The notes beneath the pieces are model-generated. The model worked only from the letters and a program-made list of their open reading frames with translations, made no database searches and had not been told where the DNA came from. Positions 21,379 to 30,608 of a stretch of DNA of 64,000 nucleotides are shown here, one piece after another; within the stretch, counting starts at the first letter, position 1; every line of letters begins with the position of its first letter. Source of the DNA: Proteromonas lacertae (lineage: Eukaryota); assembly GCA_002245135.1 (NCBI GenBank), contig NGBS01000030.1:1-64000 (forward strand), read 5' to 3'. The position numbers and the translations under genes are program-made.

Positions 21379-23328
21379 ATGGAGAGAACTCTTTGTTTAA
21401 TTAAACCAGATGCTGTGTCTATGGGTTTTACTGACGCAATAATATGTAATTTAGAGGAAAAGGGATTCTTTATTTGTCAACAAAGAGAAACTACTATAGA
21501 TCGAAGAAAAGCCATGTATAAATATATTAATTATTGATAACAATTATAGAGAATTCTTTACCGAAGTTGAAAGTGAAGAAAAATTTGATGCAATTATAAC
21601 AAATATTACATCAGGGAAGTATAATCTATTTTGTATAATTGATTAGTTTGGTTGCATTAGAATTAGCAAAAGTAAGCGCTGTAAATCACTTGAAGAATCT
21701 CTTAGGACCAACAGATCCAAAATTAGCAAAACAAATTGCTCCAAGAAGTCTAAGAGCAAGATTTGGTACTGATGAAATAAACAATGCAGTATATGGATCA
21801 ACCTCACTAACATCAGCAACGCAAGAAATAGCCTTCTTTTTTCCTCGTCCTCCTTTAAGAGAATTACCAGCAAAAGCATATTTGGCAGCAACAATACTTC
21901 CAGCAATATCACAAGCATTAGTGCATCTATGTAGAGATAGACCAGCTGATCCTCACAGTTGGATATCCAGTTGGTTGAATGTTAATAAACCATCTTCTGC
22001 TATTGGAGCAGATCCTTATCCAGAACCAGTTTTACCAGGACATGTGTTGAAATCAGACGAATTTGAATTAATACATAAAGAAAATATATTTGGGCCAAGA
22101 TTCCATCCAAAAGTATATACATATATAATAATAGTTTAATCTTTTATTTTATTTAACTTAACTTAATAGATTTGGAATTATAGAAAGACTGAAGGTCCAG
22201 CTCCAGTTTACGGTATGGGACAAGGGCATTTAGAAGGTATCAAAGCAGTCATTAATCATTTATTAAAATCTGGATTTAATAAAGTGATGTGTTTAAATAT
22301 GAGAGAAGAACCAAGTATTATAATAATAATTATTATTTATAGTGGTGTTTGTGAATGGTGAGCCAATATCATTCAGATTAGAGAATCAATTAAATGAAAA
22401 TGTCGATTACTTCTATGGAATCTCAGCATTTGATTTAGAAAGAATTGAAAATAGATTGAAGAATGATATTTATGAAACATCCAAAGAAAGAAATAATCAA
22501 ATCACAATCTATTATCAAAACAGTGTAATGGAGAATAATCCTAAAGAAATAGATATAAAACCACACTGTATTAAAACACTTAGACAATTCTATGATTATT
22601 TCAGTGAAAAATCAGATAGAATAATATACAGCAGAATACCAATTACAGATGAAATTGGTCCAGATGATACAGATTTTGATGCATTAGTGGAATTGTTAAA
22701 ACACAATGAAAAAACAACTGCTGTGTTATGTAATTGTCAAGTATATATATATATATATAATATTATTGTATATGAATAATTAGATGGGTCAAGGAAGAAC
22801 TACAACTGCTATGGTAATTGCATGTATAATATGGAGAGCAATGAATGGATTATGGAATGTAACTGATCCTGTTGAACCTAATTTCAATGAACCTGATCAA
22901 AAGAATGGTGAATTTAAATGTGTGATGAGTTTATTGAAGGATCATCCATTTGGTATTCCAATGAAGCAATTTATTGATGAGATATGTGATTCATGTGGTA
23001 AATTTCAGAATTTAAGAACTACTATTTATGATACAATAGAAAGAGCGAAGAAATCACAAGTAGAAGCTGAAATATCGTCCAATTGTATATAATATGGTCA
23101 ATTTACTGTTGATTTATAGATGCATTTTATATTCGAAGAGCTCATAATTATTTACGAAGATATTATACTCTTATTGTATTTGCAATGTATTTTTTTATAT
23201 ATTGCAATTATGATTTTATTAGATATGTAAGAGAAAATGTTGCTGATTATTTCACAATTAGTTTCAGTCAATGGATGCGTAATCATTGGACTTTCAGGAA
23301 GATTATGCACTACATTTCACTTGATTAA
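21379..23328 (+). CDS. Fusion protein: NME5/RSP23-like NDK domain, Dpy-30-type dimerisation motif, paladin-like PTP/phosphoinositide phosphatase
   Basis: NDK: MERTLCLIKPDAV and GPTDPKLAKQIAPRSLRARFGTDEINNAVYGS. Dpy-30: YLAATILPAISQALVHLCRDRPADPHSWISSWL. Paladin: VLKSDEF, WNYRK, VYGMGQ, NMREEPVVFVNG, RIPITDE, NCQ|MGQGRTTT, QNLR, YLRRYYTLIVF. The Dpy-30 motif and start of the paladin domain lie in one uninterrupted exon. Confidence 0.85.
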
Positions 23329-24064: not shown

Positions 24065-27000
24065 ATGTCTATTATCACAATTGAATCTTTTCAGAAAGAT
24101 TTGACAAATCATTTGTGTTTATATAATGAAGGAAGTATAAGTACTAGAAATTCTTTGATTTCTAAGCGAATACAAAATATTAGTAAATATTATCATGATT
24201 TTAATCTTGAGTGTGAAATAGTGAGGAGAATATTACAGAAGGGAATAGATAAACAAAATAAAACTAAAGGAAAATATGTCAGTGAAATAGGAATGGAAGA
24301 TGATAAATTCATCAATCTTGTCATTAATGATTTAGAAAAACCAAAAGTATCTCAAAGCCCAATTCATATGTCAAAAGTAAGTGTTGGGTATATTGATAAT
24401 GAATCATCTCAGAAAAGTGTATTTGATTACATATCAGATATAACTGATTTTGATTTGTTTAAATCAACATCAAATTATTTAAAGATAGCTGAATTATACA
24501 ATTCAATATATAGAGAAATGATATCCTTATCAGAAATGCAGAAAAGATTAGAACAGTTGGAATTGAGTGAAAAAATAATTTTGAAACTTAAAGATGATGA
24601 ATGTGATCTATTGCGATATTATAACTATCATAACTATCATTCTGAGAGAATAACATCATTTAAAAAACTTCAAATTGAATATAATAAATTATTAGAACAA
24701 TATAAAAGTGTAAATACTGGAGAAAATCATATTAAATGTAAAGGAAACGAGTATAAAGATGATGAAAATGAAGCTAGAGATGAAAATGAGGAAAAGAAAG
24801 AGGAAAATAGACAATCTGATATAGAAGAGATGATGATGAAAATGAATGATGAAAAAAGAAGAATTAATGATAAATCTATTCACAATATGGTAGATTGTCT
24901 TCATTCTGCTGCTAAATTAAGATCAAAACTACTGAAAGAGAATGATACTGAAATATGTTCTAGAATATTGTTATTAATACAAAATTACTTTGTATTGATA
25001 AGAGATGATAATGAAGATCTTCCAGAACCAACTTTATTAATAAATAGTTGTAAAAAAATATATGATGCTGTATTTGAAATTACTGAATCATATGAAGTCT
25101 CACAAAATAAAACAAATTTAGCTTCATTGCGATTAATTTATCCTTACGATATATTATTGGAAGATAATAAAGATAGAAAGAAAGTTTTATTTGATGAGTT
25201 TGTAAATGATATGAAAAATTTGAGAAAAGAAATGAGTAAAGAAGATATTTTATATCAAAAGACATATTCCAAACATTTTCAATCATATTATTTAATTTTT
25301 GAAAAAGCAGTGTTATGTTGTTCAAAGTCACTCACGAATGATTTCAATAATTATATTAAATTAGAATCATCACTTGATAAAGTTATATTACTCCATAAAC
25401 AGTATAGTAGTAATGTTAGTAATATTTCTGTATTAAATGATACTACTTTGAATAATCAACCTTCTATTACTTTATTGAAAGAATTGATTGATAAATGTAA
25501 TAGCTATTATAGTAATGAAATTGATAAATACAAACCAAATGATATAAAAAAGGAAGAGGATGGAGGAGGAGGATGTTGTTGTTGTTGTCATAATAATTGT
25601 GTTATAGGAATTCAATATTTCTATAAATACATTAAGATAGATGATGAATATAAAGCTCAGAGATATTTCTTGGAAGCTTTTAAGGCAATATATAATACAG
25701 AGATAGTATTAGCACAATTCAGAGAAATAATAAAAATGTTAGTTGAAGAAGGATTTAATATTGAATTTCATTCGTGTATTAATAAGTTGTTGAATAAAAT
25801 GAAAGAATTAAAACCTTATGGTAAGTATAATAATTATAATACAACCTCACAAAATATAGTAGAAGAAGCTTCTTCTAGAATTGTTCTAATTATTGATATT
25901 AATACATCTATAAGAACAAAAATGGAAGAAAGTCACACATTTTTAACATCAAGTTTGAATGATATAAGAGATATGATTATAAGACTTAAGAACTATATTG
26001 TAGAAGAAGATTTATTTTATTACGAGATTTATTGTAGAATAGAATATTTGTCAAGACTTTTAGTTAGACATATTGAATTGTGTGATAGAAAAATAGCCAA
26101 ATCTAGAAGAATAGAGGAAGTATTACAACAAATGTATGAATTATGGTGGACTGATAGTGATTCAAGAGTCATTTATAGAGTAATTACTACAGAAATTCCA
26201 CAGATTGAAGCATTAACTTACAGTAGACCATCTTGTTCAGAAATATATTTAAATCCAAACCCAAATCCAACAAAGTATATATTTGGTAGAGGTATTAAAG
26301 TTGCGCCAGAACCATCCAGTGATCTATCACTATTAATAACTGGACCTCCATTACCAGTTCCATTTGGATATGAAGTATTATTAGAATCAATACTTTGGAA
26401 TGTTGAATCATATCAATATTACTATCCCAATATGAGATTAGATTTCTATAATGAAGAAATTAATGAATTATTACAAGCAAATTTACAGGTGAATAATAAG
26501 AAAGTGAAAATGTATGAAACACAGATTTCTATATATCAGAAATATATATCGTTACATATGAATGATGTTGATTTACTATTAAATACAATTATTGATAAAG
26601 AGCTGATATTGAAAGAGAATAATGAATACATAGCAGAACTTGATAAGAATGAAATGTTATATCATGAGAATACTATTCTATATGATCTATGTGGAATTGA
26701 TTGTTTGAAATTGTTTGAGTATATTGAAAATAATCTGGATGAGCTTAAAAAGGATTATAAAGAGTTTATCAAATCAAGTACTTACCATTTTAATAAGATG
26801 AGAAGATTGCACAATCTATTGGTTTTGTTAATTAAAGAGAGAGTAAAAGAGATTAAAGATATAAATGAAAATAATGCAATTCTGTACAAAGAGATATATG
26901 AGCAAGAAGATGAAATAGATAATAGAATGAAAGATGTTACACAGTATAAGAAAATGAATGAAGAAAAGTATAATGAATTGATGAAATATTATAAAGAAGA

Positions 27001-27172
27001 GAAAGCAGTAATATCTAATATATTAAATGAAGGGAAAAAGAAGATTAAAGTGAATGGAAATTGTATTAATACTACATCGAAAAACCAAATGAATATTTTA
27101 CTTGAAAAATGGAATAATAAAGAAGATATTCAAGTGAATAATAGTAAATTGCCTTTTAAAGATATGCAATAA
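24065..27172 (+). CDS. Large helical/coiled-coil hypothetical protein (~1035 aa, intronless; 5' end uncertain)
   Basis: 3.1-kb open frame rich in E/K/L/I/N; no motif recognised. Confidence 0.8.
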   Translation: MSIITIESFQKDLTNHLCLYNEGSISTRNSLISKRIQNISKYYHDFNLECEIVRRILQKGIDKQNKTKGKYVSEIGMEDDKFINLVINDLEKPKVSQSPIHMSKVSVGYIDNESSQKSVFDYISDITDFDLFKSTSNYLKIAELYNSIYREMISLSEMQKRLEQLELSEKIILKLKDDECDLLRYYNYHNYHSERITSFKKLQIEYNKLLEQYKSVNTGENHIKCKGNEYKDDENEARDENEEKKEENRQSDIEEMMMKMNDEKRRINDKSIHNMVDCLHSAAKLRSKLLKENDTEICSRILLLIQNYFVLIRDDNEDLPEPTLLINSCKKIYDAVFEITESYEVSQNKTNLASLRLIYPYDILLEDNKDRKKVLFDEFVNDMKNLRKEMSKEDILYQKTYSKHFQSYYLIFEKAVLCCSKSLTNDFNNYIKLESSLDKVILLHKQYSSNVSNISVLNDTTLNNQPSITLLKELIDKCNSYYSNEIDKYKPNDIKKEEDGGGGCCCCCHNNCVIGIQYFYKYIKIDDEYKAQRYFLEAFKAIYNTEIVLAQFREIIKMLVEEGFNIEFHSCINKLLNKMKELKPYGKYNNYNTTSQNIVEEASSRIVLIIDINTSIRTKMEESHTFLTSSLNDIRDMIIRLKNYIVEEDLFYYEIYCRIEYLSRLLVRHIELCDRKIAKSRRIEEVLQQMYELWWTDSDSRVIYRVITTEIPQIEALTYSRPSCSEIYLNPNPNPTKYIFGRGIKVAPEPSSDLSLLITGPPLPVPFGYEVLLESILWNVESYQYYYPNMRLDFYNEEINELLQANLQVNNKKVKMYETQISIYQKYISLHMNDVDLLLNTIIDKELILKENNEYIAELDKNEMLYHENTILYDLCGIDCLKLFEYIENNLDELKKDYKEFIKSSTYHFNKMRRLHNLLVLLIKERVKEIKDINENNAILYKEIYEQEDEIDNRMKDVTQYKKMNEEKYNELMKYYKEEKAVISNILNEGKKKIKVNGNCINTTSKNQMNILLEKWNNKEDIQVNNSKLPFKDMQ

Positions 27173-27325: not shown

Positions 27326-30300
27326 TTAATCATTTTCAGGTATTGGCAATAAATTAATTCCACTTTTTATATTTTTCAAATTCTTATCAGGATCAATAAC
27401 AATACTACCAGGTCTTGAATTTGGTCTTGATGATAAAACCATTGAACGTTTATACAAAGTTGTTTTACGTCTTTCTTGTGCTACAACTATTCTATCAATC
27501 TCTTCCTCGGTCATTTGGTTATTTAAAACATTAACTACTAAACTAATAGCACAACTTCTAACCATATTCTCTGAATGACTCTCAATATATCTGAAATGCC
27601 TTACATCATCTAAACTCATCTCATAATATGGACTTCCAACGAAACTATCCCAAAAGTCATTCAATAATTTGTCAAATACTAATTTCTTTGCTTCTTTAAA
27701 TATTTCTTTTGTCTATTCATATAATATAACACATAATATTTATATACAACAACAGCAAAATGAGCAGTAATATTCTCTTTTATTTCAGGTGTTAATGGAA
27801 CAATGTCGTATTCAATATATTTTGTTATTATCATATATGCGTTTTGTTCTAACTCTTCTTTTGCTTTAATCTTTGTAAATTGCTTTACATCATGATAGAA
27901 TTCAATCAGACTACTCATATTGTATTGTTCAGCAAAACAAATCATATGCGCTCTTAATATTCTGTTCTTCAAAAACTTCTTCATTTCTTTAATTTTTTGT
28001 TTCTTTGTTGCTAATGAATAAGGTTGCAATAATGAAGGTTTAGCTCTCATCAAAATAATAATAGGAAAAGGAAGCATATAACAAATGCCAAAACATACTA
28101 AACCACAGAAAAAGAATACAATTACAAATCTTTCATATGGTAAAAGCCAATCATTTACTAGTAAAACTGCTCCACACATAATACCTAAAAACCTATTCAA
28201 CATTATATATAATATATATATATATATATACAAATAATAACCTTCAGTATAAACAACAAGTTTATTTTTTCTTTTACAACCATACACAAAGAAATATATT
28301 TGAGCGGCAACTTCAAACCAAATGAAATAGGAGAATAATGTTGGTGAAAAATACGATTCACATGAATAATAATACACTAATCTATTCCCAACTAAATCAG
28401 CATTGTATTTTATATAAATTGGAGATATAAACACTCTACATACTAATAAAATAAAATATATAATCAAAACAGCAGCTTCTATGTATATTATATTCCCTTC
28501 ATATGTAAAATTCTGTTGAACTTCTTCATTCACTAAATAGGGGGTAAATGCATAAGTTCCAATTGCTAAATAATACACAAATGATTGCAATGAACATAAA
28601 AATGTAGTTGGTCTTCCTACAATAATGAATTGATATGTAATAATGATTAATGGTAAAAAATACCACATTGCAAACATGATTGGGAATCTATAAGCTCTTA
28701 ATTTTCTATAATAAATATATATAAACTATGAAATATACCTTCTATTCATTATAGTAAAAATAGCCAAACTAAGTAATAACAACAAATCAAGAGCAGCAAC
28801 TACATACAATCCAATAACATCTGGTACAAGAAAATAACTTGATTTTTCAACTGGATTCCAAGTCCAAGGTGAAGGAGTAATATAACCACAAGTACAATCA
28901 CTATATCCATTCTCTTCTGTGCAAACATGACCATTTTGATTACAAACAGGTGCTGTTGATGGTGATACAATATACGGTGTTCTATAATCATCATATGATT
29001 GAATTTGAGCTAAGGTTGATTTTAATTCTTGATTCATTCCATCATTATCAAAACCAACTGGTCCAAAAAACGTCTTCCAAGGTTTACAATCACAACTATA
29101 CAAAGCACATGGTTGAGTATATGAATTATCATCTTCATTTTCACATACAGAAAAGAAATTATGAATTGTCAAATAAATATTATTCACAGGACTTGAATCA
29201 AAATATGTATTATCATTATCATAATTCAAATTCCTTAATGTGGATGATAATTCGACAACTCTTTGAATTGTTACACCTATTAATGAACCTCTAGCAATAT
29301 ATTCATAATCACCATCTAAATCAACAACCATATTATAAACTGAACTATTCATATATTTCATATAATTATCTTTAGCATATTTCATAAAATTATCTGTTGA
29401 TCCTAAATATGATTTTATAACATCATTTCCATATCCTTGATTCTCACTAAATGCTGTACTATAATAAATATAAGTATTATCTATATCATATTCTCTAGGT
29501 CCAGTAACAGTATAAGCTCTAGTGAGACTCATTATCACTTTTGGAGTATAACCAATTGCTTTTAATATGTGTAAATAAGATGGTAAATTCTGATCAACAT
29601 TTAATAATAATATATCAGGATCAAGTTCTTGTGCTAACTTCAACCATTTTTCAATTTCATCAACTCTTCTTTTGACTATATGTTGACTAGTATCAACTAG
29701 TGGATAAACACAAGCTTCATCACTTCCACAATCACTTACACTATGGCAATTAATACCTGTAAAATTAGTTCTATCATTTTCACATCTTTTTTCTATTAAA
29801 TCAATTGATACACCAGCAATATCTCTATAATGATCTACTATTGCTTGAACACAATTAATTGAGTATAATATATCTATTGTATCACCTAAAATCATCCACC
29901 TTCTATAATTCAATCGTTTATGAAATATTTCAATAGCTGGCAAGGCTGTTTCTGTAGATTTCATAATTGGTGAAAAGGCAAATTGATAAGCAGGTGAATA
30001 TGCTTCCTCTGGACCACATGATCCAATTACACCAACTTCAAAGCCATACATACCATATTTGTTGTATATATACTTATTAAGATGCATATTATATTCATCA
30101 CCCATTGGCAGTATGATGAAATGTGGTTTCTCATAATTATCTCTATTTGCTATATCATCAACCCATATAGTAAGTAGATGTAAATATTCGTTGTCATTGG
30201 CATTTAATACACCAAGATCTATAATTTGCAAACATACAGGCATTCTATACATTATATAAAATAGAATGCGAAAATACCTTTTGCCTCCCACACATTCCTT

Positions 30301-30608
30301 ATTTACTAATGCATTTGTATCACCACCTACACATATACCACCTTCTGAATTGATCGCATCTCTCCATAGATAATAACCTGCCCAATTTGGTATCTCTAAC
30401 AGTTAAAATATTATTTATCATATACCAAAAACATTAAATACATTGCTACTACTACTAGCTACTTCTATTCGAATATCTCCCTCTTCGCACTTGGATTTTG
30501 AGAATTGAGTAAGCATATTGTCACCATACTTGCTTTCCGCCTATAGAATTATAAAATATATAATACCAATTTTAAAATAACTATAATCCATACTATAATC
30601 AAATTCAT
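27326..30608 (-). CDS. Venus-flytrap (LivJ-like PBP1) + Cys-rich linker + 7TM + RGS domain receptor, ~1,030 aa
   Basis: Signal-like start MNLIIVWIIVILKL. WAGYYLWRDAINSEGGICVGG...GKRMPVCLQIID and WKTFFGPVGFDNDGMN match PBP1 patterns. Seven hydrophobic segments with class C-like NRKLR, GRPTTFLC and ECL2 YYYSCES. RGS pattern FLKNRILRAHMICFAEQYNMSSLIEFYHDVKQF...AYMIITKYI...IFKEAKKLVFDKLLNDFWDSFVGSPYY. Six small introns. Confidence 0.82.

Follow-up and report, generated by a model that had tools for sequence, protein, structure and literature searches.

A predicted spliced gene of Proteromonas lacertae for a probable receptor combines a predicted flytrap-like ectodomain, seven helices and an RGS domain with degenerate G-alpha contacts

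The three minus-strand open reading frames (ORFs) between positions 27326 and 30608 of a 64,000-nucleotide stretch of the Proteromonas lacertae genome (GenBank assembly GCA_002245135.1, contig NGBS01000030.1, positions 1 to 64,000; hereafter the window, within which all coordinates are counted) are, judged by homology, parts of one spliced gene, and the chimera that this gene encodes appears to be real. In a single chain, a predicted Venus-flytrap-like ectodomain is followed by a cysteine-rich stalk, seven hydrophobic helices and a cytoplasmic domain homologous to RGS proteins, in which the Glu-Asn dyad that contacts G-alpha is lost from all aligned members of the family. We put at about one half the probability that the protein is a flytrap seven-transmembrane (7TM) receptor whose RGS-homology (RH) domain, devoid of the canonical residues of a GTPase-activating protein (GAP), serves as a docking scaffold and not as an off-switch for G-alpha.

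Results

Three open reading frames join into one gene

The ORFs (28726-30402, 27679-28725 and 27326-27712) lie in AT-rich DNA (23-31% GC per 2-kb block) that uses the standard code and has short, AT-rich GT-AG introns. High AT content together with short introns would fit Proteromonas or reptile Blastocystis. Tortoise Blastocystis has a GC content of 21-23% and is without flagellar genes (PMC10690189). Removal of six such introns (26, 30, 33, 33, 39 and 35 nt) leaves one frame of 1028 residues with a single terminal stop. An earlier reading of the letters of the window (the sequence-only reading) had likewise proposed a single gene, with junctions near 28726 and at 27715-27750; both junctions recur in this model, but six introns are needed, not two. 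The boundaries chosen for intron 4 score best against 11 open-frame GT-AG alternatives, and those of intron 6 against 8.

Homologues provide a second line of evidence for this gene structure. A phmmer search with the piece running from transmembrane helix 2 to the RGS domain, against 1.84 billion representatives, returned ten matches at E<=0.001, one of which (P0009) was discarded as a low-complexity repeat; P0051 and P0052 were added by a profile search. All homologues are Logan entries, mostly cut at introns, and together their overlapping pieces cover residues 93-984 of the model, while the full flytrap domain and the RGS box are never spanned by one and the same homologue. Residues 1-92 lie outside this coverage, so that introns 1-3 and the signal peptide are read from the window sequence itself; intron 3 is the least certain of the six. 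Intron 4 is spanned without a gap by P0008, P0006 and P0032, and by P0003 with a 10-residue Ile/Tyr-rich insert that is likely its own read-through intron. Intron 5 is spanned gap-free by P0003, P0007 and P0010, with P0002, P0005, P0006 and P0008 stopping just past that site, and intron 6 is spanned gap-free by P0010, with P0001, P0003, P0004/P0025 and P0007 breaking off there. As other homologues end abruptly at these same sites, the window gene and its relatives share their intron positions. Three overlapping natural ORFs, P0008 (model residues 93-754), P0003 (495-900) and P0010 (647-984), thus tie the three window ORFs together.

That the ORFs are separate genes, or the remains of a decayed locus, is very improbable. 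It could be argued from introns 1-3, which lie outside homologue coverage, and from splicing having been judged from sequence; against it, natural ORFs span junctions 4, 5 and 6 in register, the intron positions are shared with homologues, and in P0003 a single frame holds the stalk, all seven helices and the greater part of the RGS box.

The receptor family is real, conserved and previously unannotated. Identity to the model is 43% for P0008, 35% for P0003 and 23% for P0010, and the ectodomain is better conserved (43-48% in P0008, P0012 and P0023) than the part from the helices to the RGS domain (23-35% in P0003, P0007 and P0010), which fits a constrained binding domain. No plant or Naegleria 7TM-RGS protein was among the phmmer matches, a related locus was absent from two metagenome scans, and word-seeded searches with either ORF did not yield longer proteins, which is weak evidence. 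In one cluster (P0003, P0012-P0024), 439-residue stalk-7TM-RGS ORFs occur with non-overlapping 306-residue ectodomain ORFs and several longest-contig values are equal (5958, 7977, 4702); in another organism, these ORFs are probably adjacent exons of a single gene.

The RGS domain is genuine by homology but lacks canonical GAP residues

Pfam RGS is matched on both sides of intron 6, over profile positions 3-76 (E 7.3e-5) and 86-115 (E 0.039), each part alone scoring below the gathering score of 23.9. Stronger matches come from the homologues P0003 (E 1.5e-7) and P0010 (E 6.5e-12 over profile positions 23-116), and in the window model, P0003 and P0010 alike the domain follows helix 7 in the same chain. 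A family profile finds the GRK2 RH domain first (E 2e-5), followed by RGS3, RGS5 and RGS4 (E 2-8e-4). The RGS box, which the sequence-only reading had placed correctly, thus holds up as the C-terminal domain; its signal peptide, PBP1-type domain, cysteine-rich inserts and linker are also recovered, and both peptides that it quoted lie in ORF 28726-30402.

The residues by which RGS domains act on G-alpha have fared differently. Papers are cited here by PubMed Central accession. RGS4 Glu87/Asn88 is required for GAP activity and conserved in fungal 7TM-RGS GAPs, and its mutation abolishes the GAP activity of RGS4 and largely disables the fungal proteins (PMC10794492). With the register fixed by an alignment to RGS2, the dyad falls on S846/L847 of the window protein, as had been read earlier from the string MSSL, and it is intact in none of six aligned sequences (the window protein and five homologue clusters), Glu being present in one and Asn in none. 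The dyad columns vary between members while the adjoining core columns are conserved, a pattern that speaks against a replacement surface having co-evolved. Asn88, Asn128 and Asp163 have been named as the critical RGS contacts (PMC8252600). In a register taken from an RGS consensus, the Asn128-equivalent column reads P, K, P, F, F, Q (0/6 Asn) and the Asp163 equivalent is kept in the window protein as D919 and not in P0010 (1/2); the loop bearing Asn128 appears about three residues shorter by the RGS2 alignment together with that consensus. By these alignments the RGS box is real, but we read it as a non-canonical RH domain that has lost the Glu-Asn dyad across the family, in line with the earlier suspicion of altered GAP activity. 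For residues 901-984 the alignment to P0010 scores 101, the highest of 1000 shuffles being 64.

RGS domains that have lost GAP activity and act as scaffolds are recognised (PMC3971589), and because the canonical contacts are missing across the family, scaffolding seems likelier here than a ligand-gated receptor-GAP. Of these two, the sequence-only reading had offered both; the second has been weakened by the family-wide loss. It would have the RGS domain accelerate GTP hydrolysis on a self-activating, co-evolved G-alpha, with flytrap closure tuning the activity. Those 7TM-RGS proteins that have been tested, from plants, Trichomonas, Naegleria and Aspergillus, are GAPs (PMC3718340, PMC3865004, PMC9283941, PMC10794492), a comparison restricted to the membrane domain ranks 7TM-RGS clusters first (see below), members with just 23% identity keep the RGS fold, and in the consensus register D919 falls on the position of Asp163. 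Set against this are a dyad intact in none of six sequences, in columns that vary without a new conserved set, and the apparently shortened Asn128 loop (partly by consensus), and we regard a receptor-GAP as unlikely.

A seven-helix membrane domain with a possible likeness to those of 7TM-RGS proteins

Seven hydrophobic segments (Kyte-Doolittle hydropathy, KD, 1.29-2.66) lie at residues 573-792, and seven are also present in the natural single ORF P0003. C631, at the top of helix 3, is found in all 7 aligned rows and C709, in the second outer loop, in all 8; this pair is a general G-protein-coupled receptor (GPCR) feature, not one specific to class C. Scans of the pieces of this gene and of the homologues with Pfam 7tm_3 (PF00003) gave no match, with E allowed up to 1-10. 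When the transmembrane part was compared in the ESM Atlas with the RGS domain left out, the best look-alikes were RGS-bearing 7TM clusters (0.85-0.86) of Heterolobosea, ciliates and plants; a 7tm_3+RGS cluster, mostly Zoopagomycota (0.81), and 7tm_3 (0.79) followed. The values of 0.85-0.86 are below the lead threshold of 0.9, a threshold unmeasured for parts of proteins; all of these are leads only. In the earlier description of the 7TM as class C-like, the seven helices and the GPCR-type cysteine pair stand and a 7tm_3 relationship goes undetected by profiles; 'class C-like' is, on these comparisons, a resemblance only, and the closest look-alikes are found among 7TM-RGS proteins. There may be overlap between the two labels, since an AlphaFold comparison places the 7TM of Arabidopsis AtRGS1 closest to class C mGluR1, although its authors are themselves cautious (PMC11580166).

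Unlike this gene, a giant class C-type receptor elsewhere in the window (5071 to about 16832, minus strand) does match 7tm_3 (E 4e-20), after about nine tandem PBP-I (Peripla_BP_5) repeats; it is spread over five ORFs and would be about 3,500 residues long if one gene. No profile match was found between our 7TM and its bona fide 7tm_3 domain, phmmer and BLAST comparisons of the two genes gave nothing better than E 0.08, and profile-profile probabilities were 0.1-0.2%, within shuffled controls. The suggestion that our receptor is a counterpart to this giant, about 10 kb away, therefore finds no support in these comparisons: the two have no detectable sequence relation and several unrelated genes lie between them.

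A class C-type GPCR that activates G-alpha in the role of guanine nucleotide exchange factor, with the fused RH domain capturing the activated subunit or acting downstream of it in the manner of GRK2, would account for the class C plan of flytrap, cysteine stalk and 7TM, for the invariant helix-3/loop-2 cysteines, for GRK2 being the best Protein Data Bank (PDB) match of the RH domain and for the 7tm_3 clusters at 0.79-0.81. We nevertheless judge it fairly improbable: neither Pfam 7tm_3 nor the 7tm_3 of the giant receptor is matched, GRK2 scores barely above canonical RGS domains (27 vs 24 bits), and the G-alpha-q contact residues of GRK2 are not matched in the RH alignment.

The ectodomain is predicted to be a divergent, flytrap-like domain

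Sequence searches with the ectodomain or with family profiles gave no Pfam match and no significant PDB match. In the ESM Atlas its nearest clusters are ANF_receptor/Peripla_BP_6 (best 0.94), the ten best matches all belonging to one clan, with a feature overlap of 145/256 that is below the 170 typical of same-family matches. A structure model built from nine sequences has a mean pLDDT (predicted local distance difference test) of 43 and a predicted TM-score (pTM) of 0.38, with values mostly above 50 only at about residues 156-289 of 527; a single-sequence model reached a pLDDT of 32. Foldseek with the nine-sequence model gave a best E of 3.5e-5, and all of the matches listed are type-I binding folds, including LivJ/LivK, mGluR, T1R, CaSR and NMDA-receptor N-terminal domains. 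The VIA aligner, given the same model, matched AmiC (1pea) with Z 11.8 and a root-mean-square deviation of 2.6 Å over 130 aligned residues, and other PBP-I and class C flytraps with Z 11-12.7, only model residues 39-361 being spanned by many rows. The modelled flytrap fold is thus firm for one lobe and a prediction for the whole ectodomain; the earlier assignment to the PBP1/flytrap type is borne out at fold level, mainly in that lobe. With regard to the profile scan that had been proposed as a check, RGS was found, and neither 7tm_3 nor any Pfam family for the ectodomain was.

Across five sequences the ectodomain has 105 invariant columns and strongly conserved loops. The amino-acid-binding motif of PBP1/flytrap domains, S-x22-[TS]-x13,14-R-x4-D-x2-Q (PMC12965686), was not found in the five sequences scored, at most three of its first five positions matching, at inconsistent places, and by this measure the predicted ligand is probably not a standard L-amino acid. 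The absence of this motif, the ligand-free or allosteric flytraps among the fold matches and the degenerate state of the RGS domain would also suit an ectodomain that binds no small molecule at all and instead forms a dimerisation or protein-binding cap, as in GABA-B2 and the N-terminal domains of NMDA receptors, on a constitutive scaffold or co-receptor, for instance for the giant class C protein. The strong conservation of the loops speaks against such a cap, as does the lack of any link to the giant receptor in sequence and profile comparisons, and we hold it to be improbable.

Discussion

A docking receptor as working model

In the scaffold reading that we favour, the receptor would sit at the plasma membrane and the predicted flytrap ectodomain would bind a small molecule. 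Binding may then be relayed by conformational coupling through the cysteine-rich stalk and the seven helices to the cytoplasmic RH domain, which together with the conserved tail would recruit or release a partner (G-alpha, a kinase or a trafficking adaptor) under ligand control.

Several points weigh against this reading. Gene model and function are derived from sequence comparison and prediction; the structure model is weak overall and covers the ectodomain, the 7TM and RGS assignments coming from sequence. The RGS box is covered by only five homologue clusters, all fragmentary and possibly from related species. D919 is retained at what would be the Asp163 position, and the registers for Asn128 and Asp163 follow an RGS consensus in place of a printed alignment. 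Finally, native G-alpha subunits could have co-evolved with the altered RGS face.

A wider claim is tentative: that these proteins make up a protist family not described before, of single-chain flytrap-7TM-pseudo-RGS receptors. Shaped like class C sensors, its members would act on G-alpha in neither of the known ways, by activating it or by switching it off, and their RGS fold would have become a ligand-controlled docking site. Such a family would possibly represent a third output mode for 7TM proteins and a surviving intermediate linking class C GPCRs with 7TM-RGS proteins of the plant type.

Relation to known receptors

Proteins of the 7TM-RGS kind have been described in plants, Trichomonas, Naegleria, fungi and unicellular holozoans (PMC3971589, PMC3718340, PMC3865004). 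Closest in layout are the 28 7TM-RGS members of Naegleria fowleri (PMC9283941), which like the window protein join a large ectodomain, seven helices and a C-terminal RGS domain in one chain; their ectodomains, however, are of EGF, lectin and GPS types, and their RGS domains are working GAPs. In the text of that paper the terms 'periplasmic', 'venus' and 'ANF' do not occur. AtRGS1 and the fungal class VI GPCRs (GprK/GprR) also fuse a 7TM to an RGS domain, but they are active GAPs without a flytrap ectodomain, and in the fungal proteins the dyad is conserved and required (PMC10794492).

Class C GPCRs (mGluR, CaSR, T1R, GABA-B) share the flytrap, cysteine-rich connector, seven helices and helix-3/loop-2 cysteines and have no RGS domain, whereas the window protein matches neither the 7tm_3 profile nor the amino-acid-binding motif. 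The class C connector is a nine-cysteine domain, compared with a stalk of four cysteines here.

In GPR158-RGS7-Gbeta5 a class C-type receptor also has its output through an RGS protein, but receptor and RGS7 are separate proteins, the ectodomain has a PAS fold and RGS7 is a canonical GAP (PMC8611064). De Mendoza et al. 2014 (PMC3971589, supplement file 3) list 7tm_3//RGS, a fusion of a class C-type 7TM with RGS; SBP_bac_3 and NMT1, which that file lists with RGS, make other architectures than ours, and its accessible part lists no ANF_receptor or Peripla_BP with RGS. The uniqueness implied by the sequence-only reading is thus weakened, fusions of 7tm_3 with RGS and ectodomain-bearing 7TM-RGS proteins being already in print. 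The combination of flytrap, 7TM and RGS was not found in the accessible portions of the literature searched, although the Anantharaman 2011 survey may already list it.

That survey is said to catalogue sensor domains on membrane RGS proteins. The window gene is a variant of 7TM-RGS, notable for its Pfam-invisible flytrap ectodomain and family-wide degenerate RGS face. Since Pfam does not detect the ectodomain, receptors of this kind would have escaped the domain surveys in print.

With regard to control of 7TM-RGS proteins by an outside ligand, sugar sensing by AtRGS1 may be indirect, and according to the Naegleria study their function as receptors has yet to be determined (PMC9283941). A soluble flytrap domain would make the ligand findable by standard binding screens, and so open the question of ligand coupling to direct test. 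Loss of the GAP residues throughout the family in turn raises the question of what a receptor-fused RGS fold does when it is no GAP.

Table 1. Predicted features of the receptor gene, in window coordinates
Feature	Position	Strand	Remarks
Predicted seven-exon gene, 1028 aa	27326..30608	-	open frame, single terminal stop
Exons 1-4	30608-30567, 30540-30426, 30395-30278, 30244-28739	-	
Exons 5-7	28705-28232, 28192-27748, 27712-27326	-	
Intron 1, 26 nt, GT-AG	30541..30566	-	if retained, stop at residue 20
Intron 2, 30 nt, GT-AG	30396..30425	-	in-frame stops inside; if retained, stop at residue 55
Intron 3, 33 nt, GT-AG	30245..30277	-	in frame, stop-free; based on splice signals and AT content
Intron 4, 33 nt, GT-AG	28706..28738	-	TAG at 28728-28726 splits two long ORFs; if retained, stop at residue 598
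Intron 5, 39 nt, GT-AG	28193..28231	-	in frame, stop-free
Intron 6, 35 nt, GT-AG, inside RGS domain	27713..27747	-	if retained, stop at residue 923
Predicted signal peptide, residues 1-19, split by intron 1	30526..30608	-	hydropathy (KD) 1.48
Type-I periplasmic-binding / Venus-flytrap-like ectodomain (predicted), about residues 56-515, very divergent	28975..30390	-	ESM Atlas, Foldseek, VIA
Four-cysteine insert in flytrap (C246, C258, C264, C270)	29710..29784	-	all four in 4/4 covering homologues
Second cysteine cluster (C459, C471, C476, C478), near flytrap end	29086..29145	-	all four in 3/4 covering homologues; three of four in P0008
Short cysteine-rich stalk before helix 1 (C526, C533, C542, C544)	28855..28944	-	all four in 5/5 covering homologues
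Seven-helix membrane domain	28048..28803	-	hydropathy peaks; invariant C631, C709
RGS (RH) domain, about residues 820-931, degenerate G-alpha contacts	27620..27990	-	Pfam PF00615
Cytoplasmic tail	27326..27619	-	first ~55 residues conserved in P0010; end Ser/Arg-rich

Other genes in the window

The receptor gene is flanked upstream by a gene for an IQ-motif protein, which ends 230 nt away, and downstream by a convergent ORF of 1035 residues (24065-27172, plus strand), which ends 153 nt away, has no Pfam match and contains a Gly4-Cys5 run. No Pfam match to G-alpha was found among the 33 further window ORFs of at least 150 residues that were scanned; a phosducin-family gene is present at 44796-45428 on the minus strand (E 1.5e-16). 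Ten ORFs of the window had no exact counterpart in the protein collection searched. A third receptor-like gene of the window is a 510-residue ORF (47998-49530, minus strand) that has a leader, a cysteine-rich domain of Frizzled-like type (E 4e-5, below the cut-off) and a multi-helix body. At 21639-22139 on the plus strand an NDK domain is followed by a Dpy-30 motif, a layout of the NME5 type that would point to an organism with flagella, as we take it to be flagellar.

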